Assembly: GCA_016207245.1 (NCBI GenBank)
Contig: JACQQA010000009.1
Span: forward strand, 9,165-73,164
DNA from: Candidatus Magasanikiibacteriota bacterium
Lineage (GTDB): Bacteria; Patescibacteriota; Patescibacteriia; Magasanikbacterales; UBA922
Length of the DNA: 64,000 nt
Direction of reading: 5' to 3'
A program made the position numbers and the translations under genes. Each line of letters begins with the position of its first letter. Positions within the stretch are counted from its first letter, which is position 1. Positions 10,081 to 62,242 of this stretch are shown piece after piece. The notes below the pieces were generated by a model. That model was not told the DNA's origin. It saw nothing but the letters and a program-made list of their open reading frames with translations, and did not search any database.

Positions 10081-10136
10081 ATAAAATAGAGGTTATTCGT
10101 TTGTTAGTTGTTAATTGTTCATTGTTAATTTACCAA

Positions 10137-14805: not shown

Positions 14806-17238
14806 TTATCTATCCTCAGCCCTGTCTTCCTCTGCTCCCTCAACCTCTTCTTCAATGGCTCCAACGTCTTCCTCATCTTCTTCACTATTTTCATCGTCTT
14901 CATCACTATCTCCGTTATCTCCACTATCTCCATTTTCCTCGCCGCTCTCTCCATCATCAAACACATTAAACTCGCCGCCGGAATCAGTGCCGGAAACTTC
15001 TACCTCGGTCGTTAAAATTTCGCGCGGTTTCGCGCCATCAGCCGGGCCGATAATTCCCGCCGCCTCCATCTCATCCAAAATTCGCGCCGCGCGGGCGTAG
15101 CCGACTTTCAAACGGCGCTGTAATAATGACGCGCTGGCTTTGCCGGCTTGTAAAACCGCTGTTTTCGCTTCATCAAACATCGCGTCATGGTCATCGCTCG
15201 GCCCGCCGAACATATTCGCGGTTCCGCCGACAGCTTTCCCCACGATTGCTTCATCATATTCCGGCTCTTCATCGCCTTTCAAATAATTACCCACATTATT
15301 AACTTCCCCTTCGGAAATATAGGCGCCCTGAATCCGTTTTGGTTTGCTTAATTCCGCGGTTAAAAACAGCATATCGCCGCGGCCAAGCAGTTTTTCCGCG
15401 CCGGGACAGTCAAGAATCGTGCGCGAATCAATCAGCGACGCCACGGAAAACGCGATGCGAGCCGGAATGTTCGCCTTCATCAAGCCGGTGATAATATCAA
15501 CGCTCGGCCTCTGTGTGGCGACGATTAAATGAATGCCGACCGCGCGCGCCATCTGCGCCAGACGGATAATGCCGGCTTCAACTTCGCTCGCCGCGGATGC
15601 CATTAAATCCGCCAGTTCGTCAATGATAAACACAATGTGGGGTAATTTGGTTTCCGGATGTTTTTCATTATATGAATGAATATCGCGCGAACCGGCTTGC
15701 GCTAAAATTTCAAACCGCCGATCCATTTCGCCGGTTGTCCACTTCAGCGCGTTCACGGTTTTCTGCACATTGGTAATCACCGGCGCCAACAAGTGCGGGA
15801 TGCCATTATATAAAGTAAGCTCAACTCGTTTCGGGTCAACCATAATAAACCGCAAAGTTTCCGCGGTGTTCTGATACAACAAACTCATGATAATTGTGTT
15901 GATGCACACGGTTTTTCCCGAACCGGTCGCGCCGGCAACCAATAAATGCGGCATTTTCGGCAAATCCGCGAACCACACTTTGCCCGCGACATCTTTCCCC
16001 AACGCGATCATCAGATTGTGTTCGCGCTCGGCAAATTCCCGGCTTTCCAAAAGCTCTTTCAATGTTACCAGCGCGGCTTTGAAATTTGGCACTTCAATTC
16101 CGACCAAGGATTTCCCCGGAATCGGAGCTTCAATACGAATCGGATGCGCGGCCAAAGCCAAAGCCAAATCATTTGAAAGCGAGGTAATGCGGGAGAGTTT
16201 GACACCCTTCGCCGGTTTCAAAGAATATTGGGTAACCGCCGGACCAACTCTGATTTCCCCCATTTCCACTTCGATGCCAAACTCAGACAACATGCTCTGG
16301 ATCGCCTGTGCGTTCGCCTCAATGTCTCCGCTCGTCGGCTTGTCCCGTTTCGTGGTTAACAAAGAAAGCGGCGGCAAATTTTTTATAATCACTCTCTTTG
16401 TCCACGGCGAAGAATTTTTTTCTTTACCCTGAGCTTGCCGAAGGGCTTCCTCCTCTTCTGTTTCCGCGCCTTCTTCCTCGCCGTTGTTGTTCCCAGCCAT
16501 GGCTTTTTTAACAAACGCCCGCTGTTTATTCACATCCACTTCATCATCTTCATCACCTTCCCCGCCATAGACGGGTCCGCCTTGGGCGGAAACATTATCA
16601 TCATCTTCGCTTTCATATCCTTCAAACTCGCCGTTAACTTTAACGCCACCACTCCCGGTCTTAACGAATAATTTAAACAAATTAATTACTGTCTGTCCGG
16701 CCAAGCCCAAGCCCGCGAATAATTTTTTATTCAACAAAACAAAATGGGCAAGCGCAGTGTTGAAAATTAAAAATACGGATACGGCCGCCATTCCGACCAG
16801 AACCACCACGCTCGCGATTGAACCCAAATATGTTTTCATCGGCCAAGCCAGCATTCCGAACACGCCGCCACCGCTTCCTTCTAGCGCCATACTCCACATT
16901 TCCGTTGGATTAAAACCGATATGGAACAAGCTGGAGAGCGAAAGAAAAAATAAAATCGCGCCAATGCCATGCGTCTTGCGATAGTTGTATTCAATGTCTT
17001 TAAAATAAAACCAGGCGAGGATTAAAATAATCGCCGGCGCCGCATAACGCATTGAACCAAACAAAAAACTCAAAATATACTCGTCCAGCATAATGCCGAC
17101 CGCGCCCGCTTTTCCCAAAAAACTCAAAACAAAAAGAATGGCGGCAATCACCAAAACAATGCCGATAATCCCGCGGGATAATTCCGGGTCAAAGCGTTGG
17201 GAATGGTGATGGTATGGGCGGGGCATAAAAAACAACAA
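14806..17238 (-). CDS. ftsK: DNA translocase FtsK/SpoIIIE
   Basis: N-terminal TM helices, acidic linker, AGATGSGKT Walker A, and C-terminal gamma winged helix. Confidence 0.97.
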   Translation of the reverse strand: MLFFMPRPYHHHSQRFDPELSRGIIGIVLVIAAILFVLSFLGKAGAVGIMLDEYILSFLFGSMRYAAPAIILILAWFYFKDIEYNYRKTHGIGAILFFLSLSSLFHIGFNPTEMWSMALEGSGGGVFGMLAWPMKTYLGSIASVVVLVGMAAVSVFLIFNTALAHFVLLNKKLFAGLGLAGQTVINLFKLFVKTGSGGVKVNGEFEGYESEDDDNVSAQGGPVYGGEGDEDDEVDVNKQRAFVKKAMAGNNNGEEEGAETEEEEALRQAQGKEKNSSPWTKRVIIKNLPPLSLLTTKRDKPTSGDIEANAQAIQSMLSEFGIEVEMGEIRVGPAVTQYSLKPAKGVKLSRITSLSNDLALALAAHPIRIEAPIPGKSLVGIEVPNFKAALVTLKELLESREFAEREHNLMIALGKDVAGKVWFADLPKMPHLLVAGATGSGKTVCINTIIMSLLYQNTAETLRFIMVDPKRVELTLYNGIPHLLAPVITNVQKTVNALKWTTGEMDRRFEILAQAGSRDIHSYNEKHPETKLPHIVFIIDELADLMASAASEVEAGIIRLAQMARAVGIHLIVATQRPSVDIITGLMKANIPARIAFSVASLIDSRTILDCPGAEKLLGRGDMLFLTAELSKPKRIQGAYISEGEVNNVGNYLKGDEEPEYDEAIVGKAVGGTANMFGGPSDDHDAMFDEAKTAVLQAGKASASLLQRRLKVGYARAARILDEMEAAGIIGPADGAKPREILTTEVEVSGTDSGGEFNVFDDGESGEENGDSGDNGDSDEDDENSEEDEEDVGAIEEEVEGAEEDRAEDR

Positions 17239-17308
17239 TTTAGCAATTTAATAATTTAACAATTCAACACCCCAATATTTTATCACAATTCCATAAAAAG
17301 CCAAAGTC

Positions 17309-21513: not shown

Positions 21514-21927
21514 ATGACGATAAACATTAAAAAATTATTTAACTACTGGCTGTCAGACGCAGAGGAAAGCTGGAGCGTGGCGGAGTCCTTAATGGAAAAA
21601 AATAAATACCCTGAAGCGTTATTTTTTGGACATCTGGCGCTAGAAAAAACACTGAAAGCGATAGTTGTCGCCAAACACAATGCTCACGCTCCGCCTATAC
21701 ATAATTTATTAGAATTGTGCAAAAAAACCGATATCGTCCTAGATAATAGACTCGTTGCGGAATTGCGCTTGTTCAGCGGCTTCTACATGGCCGGAAGATA
21801 CGATGAAGAAAAAATGGACTTCCGCAAAAAATGCACGAAAAAATTCAGCGAGGAAAATTTGAAAAAGATAAAAAAGTGTTATCTATGGCTAAAAGACGAA
21901 GCAAAAAAAATCTCCCGCTTGCTGTAA
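21514..21927 (+). CDS. HEPN domain protein (TA toxin-like)
   Basis: HEPN-like helices and a MAGRYDEE (R-x4-6-H-like) region. Paired with a nucleotidyltransferase. Confidence 0.7.
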   Translation: MTINIKKLFNYWLSDAEESWSVAESLMEKNKYPEALFFGHLALEKTLKAIVVAKHNAHAPPIHNLLELCKKTDIVLDNRLVAELRLFSGFYMAGRYDEEKMDFRKKCTKKFSEENLKKIKKCYLWLKDEAKKISRLL

Positions 21928-22220
21928 GCTCTTACATCTGGGGATACTTGACGATGCTGGAGAAGCAGGGCGTTCCGATCAAAAACGCCTATCTTTTTGG
22001 TTCGTGGGCAAAAGGCGCGCAACACAAAGATAGCGATATTGATCTGGCGATTGTTTCGTCCGCGTTTACTACCTGGTCTAAAAAAACAGAAAAATTAAGC
22101 CGAGCCATGCGAATGGACTTTAGTTTAATTGAATCGCACGGATTCCATCCCAAACAATTTGATCCTGAAATAAATCCCGTAGCGCACGAAATATTAAAAT
22201 ACGGAATAAAAATAATATAG
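21885..22220 (+). CDS. Minimal nucleotidyltransferase (MNT) domain protein
   Basis: YLFGSWAKGAQHKDSDIDLAIVS (GS...DxD). Start chosen at MAKRRSKK; 43-nt overlap with HEPN. Confidence 0.7.
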   Translation: MAKRRSKKNLPLAVSSYIWGYLTMLEKQGVPIKNAYLFGSWAKGAQHKDSDIDLAIVSSAFTTWSKKTEKLSRAMRMDFSLIESHGFHPKQFDPEINPVAHEILKYGIKII

Positions 22221-26597: not shown

Positions 26598-28589
26598 TTA
26601 TTTCAACAATCCAACAATCAACAGCGCCACTATGTTCGCCACTTTTATCATCGGATTTACCGCCGGACCGGCAGTGTCTTTGTACGGGTCGCCGACTGTG
26701 TCGCCGGTAACCGCGGCTTGATGCGCGAACGAACCTTTGCCGCCGTAATTTCCGCTTTCAATATATTTCTTCGCGTTGTCCCACGCTCCGCCGCCGGCGG
26801 TCATGGAAATCGCGACAAATAAACCGGTAATAATCGTACCCACCAACAAACCGCCCAAGGCCGCGGCGCCCAAAAATAATCCGACCAAAATCGGCGCGAG
26901 AACCGGAATCAGCGCCGGCAAAACCATTTGTCCGATCGCGCCTTTGGTAACAATATCAACGCATTTCGCGTAATCCGGTTTGCCATGTCCATCCATAATT
27001 CCGGCAATTTCTTTAAACTGCGTCCGCACTTCTTCCACCACTTTGCCGGCGACTTTACCGACCGACTGCATTAAAAGCGAACCGAATAAATACGGTAATA
27101 ACCCGCCGATAAATAATCCGGCCAAAACCAACGGGTCATCAATTTTAAACACTGAAGAAATCCCGCGCTCAACCAATTTATGAGTAAAGTCCGCGAATAA
27201 AACCAGCGCGGCTAAACCGGCGGAAGCAATCGCGTAGCCTTTTGTTACCGCTTTGGTCGTATTGCCAACCGCGTCCAATGGATCGGTGACTGAACGAACT
27301 TCTTCGCCCAACTCCGCCATTTCGGCGATGCCGCCGGCGTTATCCGTAATCGGGCCATACGCGTCAATCGTTACGATTATTCCAGCAAGTGAAAGCATTG
27401 CCATCGCCGCGATCGCCACACCATAAAGTCCGGCCAAGTTAAACGCGGCCAGTACTGCCGCCACAATAAAAATTACCGGCAGCGCCGTCGCTTTCATTGA
27501 TACTGCAAGGCCGGTAATAACATTCGTCCCATGTCCGGTTTCCGACGCTTTGGCAATTGATTTAACCGGCCCGTATTTTGTTGAGGTGTAATATTCGGTT
27601 ATCCAAACCATTAGTCCGGTTAAAATTAAACCGGCTAACGCGCTTCCCAATAATTGTTTAACTGATAATCCCAAATCTCCAGCATAAGCGCGGGAGGCGA
27701 AATAAAAACCGATTAAGGCCAATACCCCCGCGGCCGCCAGTCCTTTGTACAATGCGGCCATAATTTTTTTCTTTTTGCCAAGCTTGATAAAAAATGTGCC
27801 GATGATAGAAGCGATAATTGAAATCCCGCCCAAAATCAATGGAAACATAATCGCTGATTCATTGCCTTTGAAAGTCAGCGCGCCCAGCACCATTGCCGCG
27901 ACCGCTGTCACGGCGTAAGTTTCAAACAAATCCGCGGCCATGCCGGCGCAATCACCCACATTATCGCCGACATTATCGGCAATCACTGCCGGATTTCTCG
28001 GATCGTCTTCAGGAATGCCTTTTTCAACCTTACCAACCAAATCAGCGCCCACATCAGCGGCTTTGGTAAAAATCCCGCCGCCAATTCTGGCAAAAATAGA
28101 GATTAAACTTCCACCGAAGGCTAAACCGATCAAAGAATTGATGTCTTTAAAAATTAAATAAAAACCGCCGACACCCAAAAGCCCCAAACCAACCACCAAC
28201 AAACCGGTAATTGACCCGCCTTTAACCGCCACATCAAGCGCCTGCTTCAGGCCTTTTTTAGCGGCTTCGGTTGTCCTGACATTGGCTTTAACGGAAACGC
28301 GCATGCCCAAATAACCGGCCAAACCGGAAAACGCGGCGCCGATCAAGAACCCTAAACCGGTCTTCCAGCCCAAAAACCACCATAATACCGCAAAAAATAC
28401 CACCGCGACCAGCGCGATTGTGCTAAACTGACGTTTTAAATACGCTTTCGCGCCATCTTCAATCGCCCGCGCGATCGCTTGCATCCTGTCCGTGCCAGCC
28501 GGCAACTTATTGATTAAAAAAATAAGCGTGATTCCGTAAATAATCGCCGCCACTGCCGGTATGAGGACTAAAAGCCATGTTCCTAACAT
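26598..28589 (-). CDS. hppA: Membrane-bound pyrophosphate-energised ion pump
   Basis: 663 aa polytopic with [18 protein letters not shown] and DPYKDTAGP motifs. Confidence 0.97.
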
Positions 28590-34102: not shown

Positions 34103-34588
34103 TTATAATGCTTGCCCAATCTTTTTCTTTTTTGTCCTTGTCAGTTCTCCAAAAACAATCGTTGTCGCTCCCACCACAATCATCACATCCGCCAAATTTA
34201 TCACCCCAGTCAAAATCCGCAAGTAATCAATCGTGGCGCTGAAGAGAACTCTGTCTATAAAATTAGATAACGCACCAGAGATAATTAAACAATTAGCAAT
34301 TAACAAATAACAATCGGCCGCTTTGTCAGCAAATAATTTAATTAACCAAACAACCAGTCCAAAAATAATCAACGGCGTGATTAAAACCAACAGCCAATTC
34401 GGAAACGGTAAAGAAAACGCGATGCCGGGATTGGCCATATACTCCCATCCCAGCCACTTGCCAATAATATGATACTCAAAATCCTGATTGCTCCGCGCGA
34501 AAAATTTTAATAACTGGTCCACCAACAAAAAAATTCCGCCCATGCCCACTAATACGCAGACCCTCGGACGGAATTCTTTAATAAACAT
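34103..34588 (-). CDS. lspA: Lipoprotein signal peptidase II
   Basis: NPGIAFS, ALSNFIDR and INLADVMIVVG motifs. Confidence 0.9.
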   Translation of the reverse strand: MFIKEFRPRVCVLVGMGGIFLLVDQLLKFFARSNQDFEYHIIGKWLGWEYMANPGIAFSLPFPNWLLVLITPLIIFGLVVWLIKLFADKAADCYLLIANCLIISGALSNFIDRVLFSATIDYLRILTGVINLADVMIVVGATTIVFGELTRTKKKKIGQAL

Positions 34589-35882: not shown

Positions 35883-36959
35883 CTATGTCGCGACATGAAA
35901 ATAGACCACATCTCCATCTCTCACCACATAATCTTTCCCTTCCAACCTCAACTTGCCAGAAGTTTTGATCCCGCTCCAGCCGCCAAACAGGATGAAGTCC
36001 TGCCAGCTACAAACATCGGCTTTGATAAAGCCCTTGATAAAATCGGTATGAATCACTCCTGCCGCTTGGGGGGCGGATGCCCCCCGTTTTACTGTCCAGG
36101 CGCGAGTTTCCGGCTCGCCGGAAGTAAGAAAAGTAATTAAATCTAAAAGCTTATAACTGGCCAAAATTAGCTTATCTAAGCCGGTTTGCTCAATCCCCAA
36201 CTCTTTCAAATACTGCTTCGCCTCTTCCGGCGACAACTCCGCCACCTCGGCTTCCAGCTTCGCGCAAACATGTGTTTGGTCCGTTCGTTCGCCAAGATTT
36301 AGGATTTCTGATTTAGGATTTAGAGTTTCGTCATCATTTATGACGTAAAGCACTGGTTTCATCGTCAACAAATGCAAGTCTTTCACAACCACCACTTCAT
36401 CCTCTGTAAATTCAAGCGCCCGCGCGGGTTTTTCGCTTTCTAAACACAATTTAATTTTTTCCAAAACTTCAATCTCTATTTTAATTTTATCATCAATTTT
36501 GCCTTTGGCGCCTTTTTTTGTTGTGTTTAATTTTTTTTCAACCGTCTGTAAGTCCGCTAAAATAAGCTCTAAATTTATTATCTCCGCGTCTTCTTTCGGA
36601 TCAACGCGGTTTTGCACGTGAACCACATTGCTGTCGGAAAACGCGCGCACGACCTGAACAATCGCGTCAACTTCTCTGATGTGAGATAAAAACTTATTGC
36701 CTAAACCGGCGCCTTCAGAGGCGCCCTTAACCAGGCCGGCAATATCAACAAACTGAATCGCGGTCGGAATTGTTTTTTTTGATTTTGAAACTTCGGCAAG
36801 CTGTGCCAAACGCTCATCTGGGACCTCTACAATGCCCACGTTGGGCTCAATCGTGCAAAAAGGATAATTCTGCGCGTCCGCTTGTTTACTGCGCGTCAGA
36901 GCGTTAAAAAGCGTTGATTTGCCGACGTTAGGAAGACCGACTATTCCGATGGAAAGCAT
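35883..36959 (-). CDS. ychF: Redox-regulated ATPase YchF
   Basis: True start MLSIGIVGLPNVGKSTLFNALT. The longer ORF-track N-terminus reads through the tRNA-Ala gene. Confidence 0.93.
   Translation of the reverse strand: MLSIGIVGLPNVGKSTLFNALTRSKQADAQNYPFCTIEPNVGIVEVPDERLAQLAEVSKSKKTIPTAIQFVDIAGLVKGASEGAGLGNKFLSHIREVDAIVQVVRAFSDSNVVHVQNRVDPKEDAEIINLELILADLQTVEKKLNTTKKGAKGKIDDKIKIEIEVLEKIKLCLESEKPARALEFTEDEVVVVKDLHLLTMKPVLYVINDDETLNPKSEILNLGERTDQTHVCAKLEAEVAELSPEEAKQYLKELGIEQTGLDKLILASYKLLDLITFLTSGEPETRAWTVKRGASAPQAAGVIHTDFIKGFIKADVCSWQDFILFGGWSGIKTSGKLRLEGKDYVVRDGDVVYFHVAT
36296..36323. repeat. Four tandem heptamers (minus strand AAATCCT-type) inside ychF, in frame
   Basis: Plus strand GATTTAG GATTTCT GATTTAG GATTTAG. 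Encodes LNPKSEILNL in YchF. Confidence 0.7.
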
Positions 36960-36962
36960 ACG

Positions 36963-37035
36963 TGGACCTGAAGGGAATCGAACCCTTAGTCTCCTCCATG
37001 CCATGGAGGCGCGATAACCGTTACGCTACAGGCCC
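36963..37035 (-). tRNA. tRNA-Ala (anticodon GGC)
   Basis: Hand-folded: acceptor GGGCCTG/CAGGTCC with G3:U70, anticodon loop ATGGCAT, T arm GGGTTCGATTCCC. Confidence 0.85.
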
Positions 37036-48430: not shown

Positions 48431-48434
48431 TTTG

Positions 48435-48506
48435 AGGTACCGGCGAGAATTGCACTCGCGCATAGAGGTTTTGCAGACCTCTGCCTTACTGCTTGGCTAC
48501 GGTACC
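48435..48506 (-). tRNA. tRNA-Cys (anticodon GCA)
   Basis: Hand-folded: acceptor GGTACCG/CGGTACC, anticodon stem GAGGT/ACCTC with loop CTGCAAA, T arm GCGAG-TGCAATT-CTCGC. Confidence 0.8.
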
Positions 48507-48556: not shown

Positions 48557-48660
48557 CAGAAATCAGAAGACAGATAACAGGATACATTTTTGTGAACGAT
48601 TTTTATCACTGTCGTCAATTCGCTGCATTTTGTTATCTGTATTCTGAATTCTGACATCTG
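48557..48660. repeat. P1 palindromic element, alpha core
   Basis: Arms cagaaatcagaagacagataacaggataca / tgcattttgttatctgtattctgaattctg. The core is near-identical to the copy at 39947-39983. Confidence 0.8.
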
Positions 48661-48691: not shown

Positions 48692-48893
48692 TAACCCCAT
48701 CGTCTCGGCGAACCGAGGCAGACACAGCTCGTATGCGACGGGTTGCCGCATTTCGCGGTCTTTTCTCTACCTTGGCTGTCGTATTAAGGAGGACGGCAGA
48801 CGAATTTGGTGAATCCAAGGAATGAGACAAGAGCGTCTGGTTTGGCGAGTCGGACAGTGACAACACTGGTTCTCAACCAACAGAAAGGACAAG
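48692..48893 (+). promoter_or_regulatory. ~200-nt GC-rich structured 5' leader (candidate cis-regulatory RNA)
   Basis: Hand-paired stems GTCT-CGG-CGAA-CCG...AGAC, ATGCG...CGCAT, and CCTTGG...CCAAGG enclosing CTGTCGT-ATTAAGGAGG-ACGGCAG. Confidence 0.4.
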
Positions 48894-49325
48894 ATGAAGA
48901 AGATTCTCGGAATTGCAGCGGTTCTGCTCCTTTGTGGGGCGACCGCCTCTGCCAAGGCGACCGGTGTCGGTCCGCCTTCCAACGCGCGGGACTGTATCAG
49001 TATATGCTTCGGCGACATGGCGATCGGCGTGCAGGTCAATGGCGACCAGGCAGCCGACATCGGCGTGATCTTCAACGACACCGCGATCTTCATGGGCGCG
49101 ACTGACGGCGGCTTACAAGAGTACCTGCACGTCATACACATCGCGGCGACACAGCTCGAGGCCAACTCTGGCTCGGCAACGGGGGTGGACCTCCTGGGCG
49201 CCGGGAAGATTGACGCGGCCTTCTTCATGAGCGAGGATGAGGCGCAGCCTGTGTCCACGGCTGTCATTCACTCTCCGCCACCCGACCCCAACACCGGATT
49301 CCGTGGCATCACCAGCGTCGGCTGA
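48894..49325 (+). CDS. GC-rich island 6: secreted 143-aa hypothetical protein
   Basis: Signal peptide MKKILGIAAVLLLCGATASA. No family recognised. Followed by GGGAGGGC...GCCCTCCC and a CGCCC...GGGCG + T6 terminator. Confidence 0.55.
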   Translation: MKKILGIAAVLLLCGATASAKATGVGPPSNARDCISICFGDMAIGVQVNGDQAADIGVIFNDTAIFMGATDGGLQEYLHVIHIAATQLEANSGSATGVDLLGAGKIDAAFFMSEDEAQPVSTAVIHSPPPDPNTGFRGITSVG

Positions 49326-49580
49326 ACTGCTGCGTATCCTCGGGGGCGGTCGCCTCCGCTGTTCTTTCACACACCACGGGAGGGCTGAACAGACATGCTC
49401 TGACTTCGCCCTCCCAAACTCCCATAAAATCAAACCCGCCCCAAGCTTGCCGAAGGGCGTTTTTTATTTCGCCGACTTCCAACCATTCGTTGTTAATTGT
49501 TAGTTGCTCATTGCTAATTGTATTGTTAAGATGTAAAATTGTTTTAGTTAACAAGCAGGCTGTATGGTAATAATTCGTGT

Positions 49581-49613
49581 CCCCTCCCCTATGAGGGGAG
49601 GGTGAGGGTGGGG
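49581..49613. repeat. G/C hairpin CCCCTCCCC-TATG-AGGGGAGGG plus G4-type tract
   Basis: GGGG-A-GGG-TGA-GGG-T-GGGG on the plus strand. Left flank of the DUF559 gene. Confidence 0.6.
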
Positions 49614-49636: not shown

Positions 49637-50038
49637 ATGAAATTTGTTCCTTACTCAAACCAGAAAGAATACAAAAGTTTGCGAGTCGCTCTGAGAAAAA
49701 CACAGACGGATGCTGAAGAATTATTATGGGCATACTTGAGGAACAAGAGAGCAGGCTTTAAATTTCGCAGACAGCACGGGATTGGTAATTATATTGTTGA
49801 TTTTTATTGCCACCGCTCAAAAGTAATAATTGAGATAGACGGTTTTGTGCATGAAGATGACGGTGTGTTTGAAAAAGACAAAATTAGACAAGGTGAGCTT
49901 GAAAGATTGGGTTTTAAAGTTTTACGTTACACCAATAAGCAAGTTTATAAAAATTTAAGAGGTGTCTGGTATCACATAATTGAAGAGTGTAAACAGAGAT
50001 GTGGGCCATTAACCCCCTCCCGAACCTCCCCCTCATAG
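49637..50038 (+). CDS. DUF559 (Vsr-like endonuclease fold) protein
   Basis: TDAEELLWAYLRNKRAGFKFRRQHGIGNYIVDFYC...IEIDG...LRYTN is typical of DUF559. Confidence 0.8.
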   Translation: MKFVPYSNQKEYKSLRVALRKTQTDAEELLWAYLRNKRAGFKFRRQHGIGNYIVDFYCHRSKVIIEIDGFVHEDDGVFEKDKIRQGELERLGFKVLRYTNKQVYKNLRGVWYHIIEECKQRCGPLTPSRTSPS

Positions 50039-50046
50039 GGGGAGGG
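50025..50046. repeat. G/C hairpin CCTCCCCCT-CAT-AGGGGGAGG (right flank of the DUF559 gene)
   Basis: Paired by hand. Same type as the element at 49581-49602. Confidence 0.6.
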
Positions 50047-50061
50047 ACTGTGTCCGACCGT

Positions 50062-50748
50062 ATGAATCAAAAAAAATTTGTCATTATTGACGGCAACGCC
50101 ATCATCCATCGCGCTTACCACGCCTTGCCGCCGATGACGGTCAAGGGCACGATGGTGAACGCGGTGTATGGCTTCACATCAATGCTGTTGAAAGTGATTA
50201 AAGATTTAAAACCGGATTATTTGGCCGTTAGTTTTGATGTGGCGGGCGGAACTTTTCGCGATAAAGTTTTTGACGGTTATAAAGCCAAGCGCGTGAAAGC
50301 GGACCAAGAATTATATGATCAAATTCCGCTCGTGCATAAAGTTGTTGAGGCATTTGGTTTGCCGATTTTGAAAAAAGAAGGTTTTGAAGCTGACGACGTC
50401 ATTGCCACTGTTGTGGCTAAAATTAAAAATGAAAAAATCAAAATGAAAAATGTTGTAGTGAGTGGCGATATGGACTTACTACAACTCGTTGACGATGACA
50501 CGAGCGTTTACGCGTTAAGAAAGGGCATGAGCGATATTGTGATGTATGACGCGGAAGAAGTCCAAAAGAAATATGGTTTTGGGCCGGAGCATATTGTTGA
50601 TTACAAGTCTTTGCGCGGGGATCCGTCGGATAATATTCCGGGCGTGCCGGGGATTGGGGAGAAGACGGCGACGGAGTTGATACAGAAAGTTGGAGGGATT
50701 TATGAGATTTACAAACAAATCCGAAATCCGAAATCAAAAATCTACTGA
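50062..50748 (+). CDS. polA: DNA polymerase I, 5'-3' exonuclease (FEN) portion; the frame ends inside a heptamer repeat
   Basis: MNQKKFVIIDGNAIIHRAYHALPP...GIGEKTATELI. Stop at 50746 directly after the AAATCCG repeats. Confidence 0.9.
   Translation: MNQKKFVIIDGNAIIHRAYHALPPMTVKGTMVNAVYGFTSMLLKVIKDLKPDYLAVSFDVAGGTFRDKVFDGYKAKRVKADQELYDQIPLVHKVVEAFGLPILKKEGFEADDVIATVVAKIKNEKIKMKNVVVSGDMDLLQLVDDDTSVYALRKGMSDIVMYDAEEVQKKYGFGPEHIVDYKSLRGDPSDNIPGVPGIGEKTATELIQKVGGIYEIYKQIRNPKSKIY
50717..50744. repeat. Heptamer tandem repeat AAATCCG AAATCCG AAATCAA AAATCTA at the polA frame break
   Basis: Read directly. Removing the first two units (14 nt) fuses both polA frames. Confidence 0.85.
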
Positions 50749-50795
50749 GCGAAAATATTATAAGAAAACTTACTGACGGGGAGGAGAGCGCGAGG

Positions 50796-52745
50796 ATGAG
50801 CCAGAAGCTGGCAACGGTAGTGAACGATGTGCCGGGATTGAATTTTAAATTGGAAGACTGCGCGATGAAAGATTTTGACCGGCAGAGCGTGGTGGAGTTG
50901 TTGAGGAAGTTTGATTTTTTTTCGCTGATTAAACGCCTCCCCGGAGGCGACGATTCACTTCATCACACCACCACACCACCACACCATCACCGGAAACACG
51001 TGGATTTTGAGTTGGTTGAAACTGATGAGAATAATGTTAAAGAATTTGAAAAGGCATTATCAACAACAAACGTTTTTGCTTGTAAGGAAATTTTGAGCGG
51101 AACGGATATTTTGAACAGCGATTTGCTGGGTCTGGTTTTCGTCGTTGGAGATAAATCGTTTTACTTTAAAAATCCGCAACAATTTGTGGGGTCTGTGTTT
51201 CACCAAAAAGACAAGACATTGGTTGGTCATAATTTGAAACAATTAGTCAAGATACTTACACACTTACACACTTACACACTTACACACTTATTCGACACCA
51301 TGATCGCTTCCTATCTCCTCAACTCCAGCACTCGCGCCCATGACGCGAAAAGCGTGATTTTGCGCGAATTGGGGCAAGAGATCCATGGTAGCTCAGATCA
51401 AAGCAGCTTGTTCGGCGCTAATCCAAGACAGGTTGCCGAAGAATTAAAATTGATTTTGCAAGCGCATGAAACACAAAAGAAAAAATTGGCGGATTTGGAA
51501 GACTTCGGTTTGTTTGAAAAAGTTGAGATGAAATTGATACCGGTTTTAGCCGAGATGGAATTAAACGGTGTGGCAATTGATTCTGGTGTGCTAAAAAAAT
51601 TATCCAAAGATGTTGGCGAAGAAATAAATAAAATTGACAAACAAATTCAAAAAGAGGCGGGCGAGGAATTTAATGTCGCTTCGCCCACGCAGCTGCGCGA
51701 TATTTTATTTGATAAATTAAAATTGCCGAGCGAGGGAGTTAAAAAGGGCAAGACCGGATATTCCACGGCCGACGCGGAATTGGAAAAGTTGATTGACGCG
51801 CATCCGATTATCAGTCTGATTCGCGACTATCGCGAGCTGGCGAAGTTGCAAAACACTTATGTGGATGTTTTGCCAACGCTGGTAAATAAAAAAACCGGAC
51901 GCATCCACACAACTTTTAATCAGGCGGTAACAACAACCGGCCGGCTTTCCAGTTCGGAGCCGAATCTGCAAAATATTCCAATCAGAACAGACTTGGGCAA
52001 AGAAATTCGCAACGCGTTTATCGCCGAGGCCGGAAATAATTTAATCGCCGCGGATTATTCTCAAATTGAACTGCGCATTGTCGCTTCGCTGGCCAAAGAC
52101 CAGACAATGATTGACGTATTTAAGCGTGGTGAGGATATTCATCAAGCCACGGCCGCGGTTATAAATGATGTGCCGTTGGAAAAAGTAACGAAAGAAATGC
52201 GCTACGCGGCCAAAGCGGTAAATTTCGGCGTGCTATATGGCATGGGTTCTTATGGATTGGCGTGGCGGACAAAAATGCCGCAATGGCAGGCGAAAGATTT
52301 TATAAAAAAATATTTTGAAAAATTTTCCAGCGTGAAAAAATATATTGATCAGACTTTGGAATTCGCCAAAAAAGAGGGCTATGTGGAAACTTTGTTTGGC
52401 CGTCGGCGTTATATTCCGGAATTAAAATCCGACAATTTTCAACTGCGTTCGGCCGGCGAGCGGATGGCGATCAATATGCCGATTCAAGGCACAGCCGCGG
52501 ATTTGATGAAAATGGCGATGATTGCCGTTCATGACCAAATCCGAAATCCTAAATCCGAAATCCTAAATCACGACGATACAAAAATGATTTTGCAGGTGCA
52601 TGATGAGTTGGTATTAGAAGTTAAAAAGGGTTTGGAAAAAGAAGTGTCAAAATTAGTGAAAGACGCGATGGAGAATGTGGTGAAATTAAACGTGCCGGTG
52701 GAGGCGCATGTAAGTGTTGGGAAAAGGTGGGGAGAGTTGAAATAG
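50796..52745 (+). CDS. polA: DNA polymerase I, 3'-5' exo-like and polymerase domains (frame open from 50706, first ATG at 50796)
   Basis: TGRLSSSEPNLQNIP, DYSQIELR and QVHDELVLEV motifs. The pre-ATG in-frame codons encode LLSENIIRKLTDGEESAR, which is homologous to the Pol I linker. Confidence 0.93.
   Translation: MSQKLATVVNDVPGLNFKLEDCAMKDFDRQSVVELLRKFDFFSLIKRLPGGDDSLHHTTTPPHHHRKHVDFELVETDENNVKEFEKALSTTNVFACKEILSGTDILNSDLLGLVFVVGDKSFYFKNPQQFVGSVFHQKDKTLVGHNLKQLVKILTHLHTYTLTHLFDTMIASYLLNSSTRAHDAKSVILRELGQEIHGSSDQSSLFGANPRQVAEELKLILQAHETQKKKLADLEDFGLFEKVEMKLIPVLAEMELNGVAIDSGVLKKLSKDVGEEINKIDKQIQKEAGEEFNVASPTQLRDILFDKLKLPSEGVKKGKTGYSTADAELEKLIDAHPIISLIRDYRELAKLQNTYVDVLPTLVNKKTGRIHTTFNQAVTTTGRLSSSEPNLQNIPIRTDLGKEIRNAFIAEAGNNLIAADYSQIELRIVASLAKDQTMIDVFKRGEDIHQATAAVINDVPLEKVTKEMRYAAKAVNFGVLYGMGSYGLAWRTKMPQWQAKDFIKKYFEKFSSVKKYIDQTLEFAKKEGYVETLFGRRRYIPELKSDNFQLRSAGERMAINMPIQGTAADLMKMAMIAVHDQIRNPKSEILNHDDTKMILQVHDELVLEVKKGLEKEVSKLVKDAMENVVKLNVPVEAHVSVGKRWGELK
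51254..51290. repeat. 8-nt tandem repeat ACTTACAC x4.6 inside polA
   Basis: Encodes LTHLHTYTLTHL. Confidence 0.75.
52537..52571. repeat. Five heptamers AAATCCG/AAATCCT inside the polA polymerase domain, in frame
   Basis: Encodes QIRNPKSEILNH in the loop before QVHDELV. Confidence 0.8.
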
Positions 52746-52746
52746 T

Positions 52747-53775
52747 ATGCTTATTTTTCTCTATGGCACGGATACGTTCCGTAGCCGGCAACAATTAAAA
52801 AAAATGATTGCCAAATTCAGGCAAGACCGCGATCCTGGCGGATACAACGTGGCGGTTTTGGATTGTCAAAAAGAAGAAGGCGGGAAAATAATGGAACAGA
52901 TTTTGTCCGCGCCATTTTTGGCAGAAAAAAGAATGGTGGTTTTGGAAAATTTTTTGTCTGCCACAGGCCGCGGTGATTTACAAGAAGAGATTTTAAAAAG
53001 AATAACAAACAAGACATTGCCGGAATCAACAGTGCTTGTTTTTTATGAAAGCCCTTCGGCTCCTTCGACAAGCTCAGGACGAGTCGCTCAGGGCAAGCCC
53101 AAAACAAAAGTTGCTAAAGAATTGTTTGATATATTAAGTAAAGAAAAATTTAGCCAGCAATTTGATTTATTGATCGGGGTGAAGTTAATCAGCTGGATTT
53201 TACAAGAAGTAAAAGATCATGGCGGCAAGATTAATCAGCCGGCGGCACAATATCTGGCGCAAAATGTTGGTGGAGACATGTGGAGGTTGAGTTCATTGGT
53301 GAAACAGTTGATTGCCTTCAAACAATCGTCTTGTCATCCCCGTGAAAACGGGGATCCAGAAATCGCGCTGTCCGATGTCCAACTCTTTCTTGACGAAAAA
53401 GCAGATGACAGCATTTTCAACCTCGTTGATGCGGTTGTCGGCGGGCAAGCGAAAAAAGCCTTTGAAATGATTCGCGAACAATACAGAATCGGCGAGGACG
53501 CGCAGTTTGTTTTTGCCATGCTATTGAGGCAATTCAGAATTTTGCTGGAATTGCGGGATTTGTACGACCGTGAGGATAATTTATCGAGCGAACAGTTGGC
53601 GAAAAAATTAAACCTGCATCCATTTGTGGTAAAAAAATCTTTGGTATTCGTCAAAAAATATTCTTTGGCTAAATTAAAAACAGTTTATCAGCGGTTGTTG
53701 GATTTAGATGTAAAAACAAAGACCGGCCAAGGAGACCAGTCGTTATTGTTGGATGTTTTTGTGGGAACCGTTTAG
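52747..53775 (+). CDS. holA: DNA polymerase III delta subunit
   Basis: MLIFLYGTDTFRSRQQLKKMI... with a HolA-like layout. Carries two GC-hairpin insertions (53053-53099, 53336-53355). Confidence 0.75.
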   Translation: MLIFLYGTDTFRSRQQLKKMIAKFRQDRDPGGYNVAVLDCQKEEGGKIMEQILSAPFLAEKRMVVLENFLSATGRGDLQEEILKRITNKTLPESTVLVFYESPSAPSTSSGRVAQGKPKTKVAKELFDILSKEKFSQQFDLLIGVKLISWILQEVKDHGGKINQPAAQYLAQNVGGDMWRLSSLVKQLIAFKQSSCHPRENGDPEIALSDVQLFLDEKADDSIFNLVDAVVGGQAKKAFEMIREQYRIGEDAQFVFAMLLRQFRILLELRDLYDREDNLSSEQLAKKLNLHPFVVKKSLVFVKKYSLAKLKTVYQRLLDLDVKTKTGQGDQSLLLDVFVGTV

Positions 53776-58691: not shown

Positions 58692-58832
58692 CAGAATGCA
58701 GCCACCAGATAACAGAATGCAACGAACGGGTGATTGGCGAGTAGAACAGACACCAATCGTAAATGTATTCTGTTATCTGTATTCTGGTAACTGTTCGTTG
58801 TAATTGCATTCTGTTATTTGTATTCTGCATTC
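58692..58832. repeat. P1 palindromic element, beta core, with a duplicated right arm
   Basis: cagaatgcagccaccagataacagaatgca ... ggtgattggcgagtagaac ... tgtattctgttatctgtattctg ... tgcattctgttatttgtattctgcattct. Confidence 0.8.
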
Positions 58833-58840
58833 TAAAAAAT

Positions 58841-60248: not shown

Positions 60249-60407
60249 CAGAATACAGAGTGCAGATAACAGAATGCACACGACAAAAACAGCTACCAGA
60301 TAACAGAATGCAACGAGTTGGCATTGGTGAGTAAAATCGGTCGCGGATGTATTCTGCTATCTGTATTTTGGTAATTGCTCGTTTTGTTATCTGCATTCTG
60401 CATTCTG
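60249..60407. repeat. P1 palindromic element, beta core, nested double arms
   Basis: Outer arms at 60249-60278 and 60383-60407, inner arms at 60296-60311 and 60349-60375. Core is ggcattggtgagtaaaatc. Confidence 0.8.
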
Positions 60408-62112: not shown

Positions 62113-62236
62113 AATACAGAACACATAACACAATTAACAAAACACACACGATTCAAAACACATAACCCAATAAACATAACACAACAAACCCAATCGCCAA
62201 TCCACTGTGTTCTGTTATCTGCATTCTGTATTCTGC
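62113..62236. repeat. P1 element, degenerate left arm and intact right arm
   Basis: Right arm tgtgttctgttatctgcattctgtattctg, core caatcgccaatcc (beta type). The left side has decayed to a CA-rich tract. Confidence 0.6.
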
Positions 62237-62242
62237 AAAACT

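Follow-up and report, generated by a model that had tools for sequence, protein, structure and literature searches.

In a 64,000-nucleotide (nt) stretch of DNA (the window, meaning below this whole stretch) from a groundwater metagenome-assembled genome (MAG) of the uncultivated Candidatus Magasanikbacteria, a lineage of the Candidate Phyla Radiation (CPR)/Patescibacteria, polA, the gene for DNA polymerase I (Pol I), is broken into two overlapping open reading frames (ORFs) at a heptanucleotide repeat. We conclude that this is probably the gene of a fused Pol I whose frame was shifted when a five-unit array encoding a loop of the protein lost one 7-nt unit, and a frameshift of this kind can be reversed by regaining one unit. 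The junction array is one of five positionally conserved non-triplet microsatellites lying in tolerated loops of Magasanikbacteria polA. A lone slippage frameshift in one gene of a MAG would be ordinary; it is the context of five conserved sites that gives the case its weight. Coordinates are positions in the window throughout, and related loci and the relatives' proteins are designated L0xx and P0xxx respectively. The elements of the split locus, with lengths in amino acids (aa), are as follows:

50062..50748, + strand: ORF1, from ATG 50062 to TGA 50746-50748, 228 aa, N-terminal Pol I fragment (ORF listing, Pfam)
50706..50795, + strand: stranded polA codons in the -1 (ORF2) frame, 5' of ATG 50796, encoding DLQTNPKSEIKNLLSENIIRKLTDGEESAR
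50717..50744, + strand: junction heptanucleotide array, AAATCCG AAATCCG AAATCAA AAATCTA, 4 units
50780..50786, + strand: Shine-Dalgarno-like GGAGGAG, 11 nt from GGAGG to ATG 50796 (read from the sequence)
50796..52745, + strand: ORF2, 649 aa from ATG 50796 (ORF listing, Pfam)

A polA gene split at a heptanucleotide array

The initial annotation, made from the sequence alone, had placed the break exactly at the repeat and had stated that deleting two units or adding one restores the frame. Direct reading and the ORF listing confirm both statements: either edit yields a single stop-free polA ORF, of 889 aa after removal of 14 nt and of 896 aa after addition of 7 nt. ORF1 ends in ...EIYKQIRNPKSKIY followed by TGA, with the out-of-frame tail KIY*, and the -1 frame, open from 50706, overlaps it by 41 nt (50706-50746). 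Tandem Repeats Finder (TRF) recovers the junction as AAATCCG x2.7 with 100 % match, and the repeat exceeds chance expectation, the window having two perfect arrays of period 7 with 2.5 or more copies versus 0.03 per dinucleotide-preserving shuffle.

ORF1 carries the resolvase-like domain of the 5'-nuclease (PF02739, 1.4e-53), after which the H3TH/SAM-fold domain begins and is cut off halfway. What is left of the 5'-nuclease domain is in ORF2, followed by a vestigial domain resembling a 3'-5' exonuclease and by a family-A polymerase domain (PF00476, 1.1e-156) that is intact and shows the DYSQIELR and QVHDE motifs. The matches to the 3'-5' exonuclease domain lie below the cut-offs (24.6 bits against 27 for PF22619 and 20.4 against 23.6 for PF01612), suggesting that the fold is probably present in vestigial form. 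The locus has the 5'-nuclease and polymerase domains of a fused three-domain PolA and lacks its single uninterrupted ORF. In GenBank ORF1 is MBI4427335.1 (locus tag HY569_02560), annotated as a 'hypothetical protein', and ORF2 is MBI4427336.1 ('DNA polymerase I'), a 670-aa protein given the non-canonical start ATC 50733 (MKNLLSEN...); these two entries are the two halves of a single frameshifted polA.

The codons 5' of the ORF2 ATG prove to be real polA coding sequence lying out of frame, as had been claimed, on the evidence of both Pfam and alignment to relatives, in which the segment is conserved (DLQTNPKSEIKNLLSENIIRKLTDGEESAR in the window, LLSEGVIKKLVDGEKSAR in P0004). Their assignment to the interdomain linker of Pol I does not hold. 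The break cuts PF01367, a profile of 97 positions, such that ORF1 matches positions 3-52 and the upstream extension of ORF2 positions 52-96, and the stranded region makes up the second, C-terminal half of this H3TH/SAM-fold domain of the 5'-nuclease. By comparison with solved Pol I structures the break aligns with about Taq residues 221-225 and the stranded segment with about residues 225-283, the nuclease C-terminal domain extending to about 283-290. In an AlphaFold model of P0001, the nearest intact relative (mean predicted local distance difference test (pLDDT) 85.4), the break maps to the 221-225 loop, with helices 213-220 and 226-230 on either side and six more helices of the domain downstream. 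Profile matches and model alike thus place the break inside the 5'-nuclease domain and not at a domain boundary.

Nearly all of 120 listed homologues are 860-980 aa long and have the three Pfam domains; only two contig-end fragments and the window's own ORF2 depart from this. The fused polA products of relatives have approximately 890-900 aa. Furthermore, polA is one uninterrupted ORF in all of the 89 related loci that were fetched except L080 and L089. The latter encodes a very distant homologue (26 % identity, 97 % covered), and L080 was rejected as a second broken polA because its ORF ends at a scaffold gap, visible as a run of N, and the spot holds no repeat. The alternative that relatives would carry separate FEN and Klenow-like genes was consequently not borne out, and the fused gene is the ancestral state. 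In the window the holA start lies 2 nt past the polA stop (52745-52747); in the nearest intact relatives, L001 (8868-10998) and L002 (3544-5674), three extra genes, encoding proteins of 392 aa, 201 aa and a 78-aa PDDEXK_3, separate polA from holA.

The junction site of L003 has five units, C AAATCCT AAATCCT AAATCTA AAATCAA AAATCTA, and that of L001 and L002 has AAGTCCG x4 and a degenerate fifth unit. The final two units of the window junction are identical to those of L003, and one of L003's first three is missing. The +7 repair encodes QIRNPKSEIKNLLSE, equal in length to the corresponding segments of P0004 (QILNPKSKIKNLLSE) and P0001 (QVRSPKSEVRKFFTE), and a profile of 50 intact relatives gives it 1583 bits, as opposed to 1577 for the product of a -1 slip and 1568 for the -14 repair. 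As the closest relatives have five units and the +7 repair fits both length and profile better, the window array has lost one unit, and its allele is a one-unit (7-nt) slippage contraction, not a two-unit expansion. The earlier proposal of deleting two units is thus correct in that it opens the ORF, but as a history it is less likely, the +7 repair scoring 15 bits better. That the window gained two units over a two-unit ancestor, in which case removal of 14 nt would return the ancestral gene, we hold to be highly improbable: the open 889-aa ORF and a few relatives which are 2-3 residues shorter in the junction loop agree with it, but the five units of the closest relatives, a product 7 aa below the relatives' length and the lowest full-length score among the repairs tested all speak against it. 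Repeat slippage as the cause of the split, one of the options first put forward, is accordingly supported.

Arrays at five positions of polA

A census of the window with TRF, restricted to arrays of period 7-8 with 2.5 or more copies and a score of 30 or higher, recovered 20 versus 0.83 in shuffles, an excess of about 24-fold; at a score of at least 40 the figures are 7 and 0.07. Periods divisible by three are not enriched. Five of these arrays, starting at 50419, 50717, 50964, 51254 and 52537, lie within polA. Those other than the junction array are listed here, together with an array in ychF that resembles them:

50419..50452, + strand: polA array site '120', AAAATGA-like x4.9, 74 % matches, encoding KIKNEKIKMKN
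50964..50990, + strand: polA array site '305', CACACCAC x3.4, encoding HHTTTPPHHH, in the disordered interdomain linker
51254..51290, + strand: polA array site '400', perfect ACTTACAC x4.6, encoding LTHLHTYTLTHL
52537..52569, + strand: polA array site '828', (AAATCCG AAATCCT) x2.4, in frame, encoding QIRNPKSEILNH
36296..36323, - strand: ychF array, AAATCC(T/G) family, encoding LNPKSEILN, within the ychF gene 35883-37004

When TRF arrays from 83 polA genes were mapped to alignment columns, 50 of the 52 period-7/8 arrays fell into five clusters, at residues 119-131, 215-232, 301-318, 397-413 and 824-843, which together make up 9.6 % of the protein (binomial P = 1e-48). All five correspond in the model of P0001 to helix ends and surface loops or to disordered linker, the linker at site 305 having pLDDT <50 at residues 299-316. 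The positions are shared and the units differ among relatives: the junction site shows AAGTCCG, AAATCCT, AACTCAG, AAGCAAT and GAAAGATT, site 400 shows ACTTGCAC, ACTTTCAA, AATCTTTC, AAGTGCTC, TGTCAGT and CAATGAAA, and site 120 shows CAAGATA, AAAGAAC and AAATCAA. Many of these arrays are 100 % perfect, with 4-5 copies; for example, L004 has a perfect CAAGATA x4.4 at site 120, equal in length to the window's array. The repeat tracts have been retained across related lineages beyond neutral expectation.

Site 400 is particularly informative with regard to length. Its anchor-to-anchor segment measures 33-39 nt in nearly all relatives, with or without an array, and 45 nt in L001; distant relatives have an ordinary loop such as LKYNFEIEVKNN and the nearest subclade has arrays of equal length. 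On these grounds we reject the idea that the arrays are insertions at this site. Moreover, one A to G substitution, repeated in all copies, separates the window (ACTTACAC) from L003 (ACTTGCAC), and length is unchanged, each array fitting within 33 nt. The pattern is what would be expected of concerted evolution under a constraint on length and frame.

The arrays are concentrated in polA. At Magasanikbacteria-like loci, with arrays defined by period 7/8 and at least 3 copies and other ORFs by a length of at least 150 aa from stop to stop, the density per kb is 0.192 in polA, 0.010 in other ORFs and 0.146 in intergenic DNA. At the rate of other coding sequences 1.56 arrays would be expected in polA, as against the 29 observed (about 19-fold, P = 1e-26), the comparison genes being a limited set flanking polA plus the window genes, and the related genomes not being independent samples. 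In the window itself polA has 1.5-1.9 arrays per kb versus 0.1-0.2 elsewhere, a 9-15 fold excess (P about 1e-4). Neighbouring genes have few arrays, and these are weak and nearly always sit at an end of the ORF. Terminal placement is the usual pattern for prokaryotic simple sequence repeats (SSRs) in coding sequence, those in the middle of proteins being suppressed (Lin & Kussell, PMC3315296), and polA, with an array density otherwise found only in intergenic DNA, runs counter to the rule by which mutable repeats are purged from mid-protein positions. We accordingly reject the view that the arrays are a genome-wide neutral feature tolerated everywhere, given 0.010 versus 0.192 per kb and the weak, terminal character of the others. 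The period spectrum of the arrays is mostly 7, 8 and 9, and they are nearly absent from more distant Patescibacteria. A single strong array, AAAGGCA x5.9, is present near polA site 220 in L074 (3039-3079), a MAG labelled as Saccharibacteria, hinting that the arrays are perhaps not strictly confined to Magasanikbacteria.

Site 828 and the junction array have a common unit family and a common reading phase, and the ychF array is identical to that of site 828 at 27/29 nt, again in the same phase. Thus AAATCC(G/T) arrays encoding NPKSEI(L/K)N occur at two polA sites and in ychF in one reading phase, and this likeness suggests array sequence exchange, or a common origin, between unlinked coding loci. 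As a pure AAATCCT array would hold an in-frame TAA, the alternation of G and T reflects the avoidance of stops in translated arrays. Units are identical in 3.0 % of within-genome pairs versus 0.6 % of between-genome pairs, in small numbers and with non-independent pairs; as evidence for a common template within a genome this sharing is a weak pointer. A different kind of coding repeat occurs in ftsK (- strand, 14869-14932 and 16151-16168), whose in-frame periods of 21, 9 and 6 nt are unlike the frame-breaking 7-8 nt of polA.

The broken allele and its alternatives

We favour the view that the four-unit allele is real, since the contig is not full of frameshifts, the event is recent and a single read would extend far beyond the array. 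That it is recent follows from both halves and the 30 stranded codons being as conserved as the rest of the gene. A search of the overlapping ORF pairs in the window for other split genes found none: the suspicious adjacent pairs are complete, distinct domains (HEPN/NTase, DoxX/VKOR/DoxX and UPF0047/cupin), for which reason we also reject a general problem of assembly or pseudogenisation. An artefact of assembly or consensus, or a minority allele in a population whose functional polA has five units, would sit well with the intact polA of relatives, with the importance of the Pol I 5'-nuclease in many bacteria, and with the source being a MAG contig, tandem repeats being classic sites of population heterogeneity. 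We consider it unlikely all the same, as the array is just 28-35 nt long with perfect periodicity over no more than 26 nt, fits well within a short read and would be too short to form a cycle at typical assembly k-mer sizes; a 7-nt indel is moreover atypical as a sequencing error, and none of the other window genes appears frameshifted. No contig encoding the 670-aa ORF2 was returned by an exact-protein look-up for polA of the same strain, the cluster look-ups placed each protein on one contig only, and a scan of JGI metagenomes found no polA locus of the same species; in a scan of GTDB species representatives the best polA identity was 84-87 %.

Some points weigh against the loss of one unit from a functional five-unit gene as we have described it. 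The dominance of the four-unit allele in the sampled population is presumed, as is expression from it, each protein being unique to one contig, and a dominant broken allele would be surprising if the 5'-nuclease of Pol I were indispensable and had no paralogue. Strains of one relative that are almost identical (99.84 % over 10.7 kb) share identical arrays, and slippage is hence not so frequent that consensus alleles commonly differ; frequent switching is also hard to reconcile with these strains and with the window being the only out-of-frame genome among those examined.

The initial annotation had further allowed that polA functions as two polypeptides or is expressed by frameshifting, neither of which is favoured by our results. 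A stable functional split, comprising a separate FEN-like protein and a Klenow-like polymerase, might be argued from the fact that Klenow-type fragments are active alone, from the acidic-residue motifs and the GIGEKTA H3TH motif retained in ORF1, from the location of the break in a surface loop of the AlphaFold model, and from the Shine-Dalgarno-like GGAGG and ATG of ORF2. The GGAGG is also 3' of the ORF1 stop, which lies 48 nt upstream of ATG 50796, and GGAGGAG could permit independent translation of ORF2 or re-initiation after ORF1. However, the break does not fall at a domain boundary, translation of ORF2 from its ATG would leave the residues encoded by 50739-50795 (about 19) out of both products, and no split relative was found among the related loci. 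With its 228 aa ORF1 falls short of the stand-alone 5'-nucleases of solved structure (251 aa in Xni and 319-331 aa in others), and the 5'-nuclease activity of its product is for this reason doubtful. The order of a 5'-nuclease-like ORF followed by a polymerase ORF recalls the stand-alone FEN/Xni/FenA proteins (PDB 3zd8, 6c33), from which the present locus differs in its intradomain break, its stranded codons and its fused relatives. The pair is not a natural two-gene arrangement, and a working split is very unlikely. Still less credible is programmed recoding, in which ribosomes shifting by -1, or slippage during transcription, at the four-unit repeat would yield full-length Pol I. ORF2 is indeed in the -1 frame across the 41-nt overlap, and A AAA A at 50733-50737 could allow P-site slippage to give the 1577-bit product, 6 bits below the best repair. 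Yet this is the sole candidate in 50706-50746, where there is no slippery heptamer of the form X XXY YYZ; the downstream RNA has a minimum free energy of -23.4 kcal/mol (z = +0.86, with 160/200 shuffles folding at least as well), no A/T run of at least 8 is available for transcriptional slippage, and the shift is found in none of the relatives, whereas programmed shifts are conserved. Programmed frameshifting was rejected for want of a slippery site, a structure and conservation.

Based on these observations we propose that slipped-strand mispairing in a five-unit array, within a loop of the 5'-nuclease domain, would have removed one 7-nt unit. As assembled, the locus would then yield a 228-aa 5'-nuclease fragment without the last six helices of its domain and a 649-aa Klenow-like protein from ATG 50796. 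Where selection acts on the length and frame of a loop, non-triplet arrays in it could not be lost by drift as neutral arrays are. Their homogenisation at constant length would need paired -1/+1 slips, or conversion, passing through frameshifted intermediates, which would be survivable only where transient loss of the gene is tolerated; the window allele would fit such an intermediate in array turnover. The locus offers a natural system for the birth, homogenisation and retention of microsatellites under frame constraint, and array copy number could serve as a marker of population heterogeneity in Patescibacteria metagenomes.

Comparison with known repeat systems and other features of the window

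Slipped-strand frameshifting at a coding heptanucleotide repeat is a known mechanism, and polA has the make-up of a contingency gene in that a non-triplet tandem repeat lies within the ORF and a single-unit change shifts the frame. Arrays of 3-5 copies slip far less than classical contingency tracts. That polA is under selection for phase variation, being toggled at five non-triplet arrays and OFF in the window genome, strikes us as quite unlikely even so. The conservation of the array positions across the clade, the roughly 19-fold density over neighbouring coding sequence, the 9-15 fold excess in the window, the few, weak and terminal arrays of neighbouring genes and the mid-protein location, where coding sequences usually suppress SSRs (PMC3315296), would all suit it, and neuO is a direct precedent for a heptanucleotide coding repeat acting as an ON/OFF switch (PMC13001214). 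On the other side, no copy-number polymorphism was observed, the arrays of near-identical strains being identical; the window genome alone, of all those examined, is out of frame, as compared with 65.6 % of neuO genomes that are OFF (PMC13001214); and the enrichment could come from a length-constrained microsatellite trap without selection for switching.

In neuO, of Escherichia coli K1 and phage CUS-3, an AAGACTC coding repeat of 3-53 copies causes phase variation (PMC13001214). The likeness to polA is in the intra-ORF 7-nt repeat whose count sets the frame in steps of single-unit slippage; neuO, however, carries its repeat at the 5' end, is an accessory surface-modification gene and is OFF in about two thirds of genomes (PMC13001214), whereas the polA arrays have 4-5 copies, are mid-protein and belong to a core replication and repair gene with a single out-of-frame case. 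The classical SSR contingency loci of Haemophilus, Neisseria and Campylobacter similarly have slippage-prone non-triplet repeats that shift the frame reversibly, but with units of 1-5 nt in many copies near the N-termini of surface or host-interaction genes, as opposed to units of 7-8 nt at five internal loop sites with segment length conserved across species. The tandem repeats of Borgs, which are archaeal extrachromosomal elements (PMC9879509), resemble those of polA in being perfect, fast-evolving, lineage- and genome-specific and located in ORFs, where they form or fill flexible protein segments; the Borg units in ORFs all have lengths divisible by three and add length (PMC9879509), while in polA units of 7-8 nt, a single-unit change of which breaks the frame, replace loops at constant length. 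A search of the literature on SSRs or heptanucleotide repeats in CPR/Patescibacteria returned nothing relevant, and we found no earlier description of five conserved internal polA sites with lineage-specific units and constant length across a CPR lineage.

Pol I function has itself been tied to repeat stability in Haemophilus influenzae (Bayliss 2002 and 2005, as cited in PMC12721329), where inactivation of polI is described as destabilising repeat tracts. A polA frameshift at a repeat is on that account potentially self-referential, and the polA-off state could hasten its own reversion, a feedback loop that would also favour phase variation. As cited there, the H. influenzae work concerns polI mutations acting on other loci, and repeats within polA lie outside it. 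One may imagine a cycle in which a single-unit slip turns polA off, Pol I deficiency raises repeat instability, and selected re-expansion restores the frame; each turn would homogenise the arrays and renew their units, in a gene that is conditionally dispensable. On this scheme, which we offer as a speculation with little probability behind it, Magasanikbacteria polA would be a self-sustaining mutator switch, reversible and specific to repeats, and the window genome the first natural example of an OFF-state intermediate. If true, Pol I activity, and hence genome-wide repeat stability, would be switched reversibly in these episymbionts.

Two further repeat families are dispersed over the window. 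TTGTTAA(A) heptamers and octamers occupy four or five loci, at 10101-10130, 49490-49529, 34283-34314 (reverse complement, in lspA), 17234-17269 (reverse complement) and 26603-26623, mostly in intergenic DNA or at gene ends; the unit holds TAA and cannot be read through on that strand. The TTCTGTTATCTGCATTCTG family of TCTGNAT heptamers occurs at 58764-58834, 62205-62237, 60390-60407 and 48636-48654, with an inverted copy at about 58693-58724. Arrays of it lie directly 5' of the likely true starts ATG 58841 (a large unknown protein) and ATG 62244 (a solute-binding lipoprotein), and the family also occurs close to a pilin-like gene; such repeats could have a role in regulation or in promoter spacing. 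Heterocystous cyanobacteria have short tandemly repeated repetitive (STRR) sequences, heptanucleotide families which are mainly intergenic; the term is used in PMC4748335, among others. The window families TTGTTAA, AAATCCG/T and TCTGNAT resemble them as tandem heptamer families dispersed over a genome, and we know of no link of STRR sequences to polA or to coding loops.

Directly 5' of polA is a gene for a DUF559 protein (Vsr-like endonuclease fold; 49637-50038) flanked by similar GC-rich hairpins at 49581-49602 and 50025-50045 (CCCCTCCCC-TATG-AGGGGAGGG and CCTCCCCC-TCATA-GGGGGAGG). No DUF559 gene is listed in the syntenic region of L001 and L002, and the gene with its hairpins may be a small mobile cassette. 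Further upstream a GC-rich island (48760-49470; 58.5 % versus 44.9 % in the window) lies beside tRNA-Cys (48434-48506) and holds a 143-aa ORF with a signal peptide (48894-49325); it looks like foreign DNA inserted next to a tRNA gene. Finally, the overlapping ORFs at 21514-22220, which encode a HEPN protein and a minimal nucleotidyltransferase, form a typical toxin-antitoxin or defence module.

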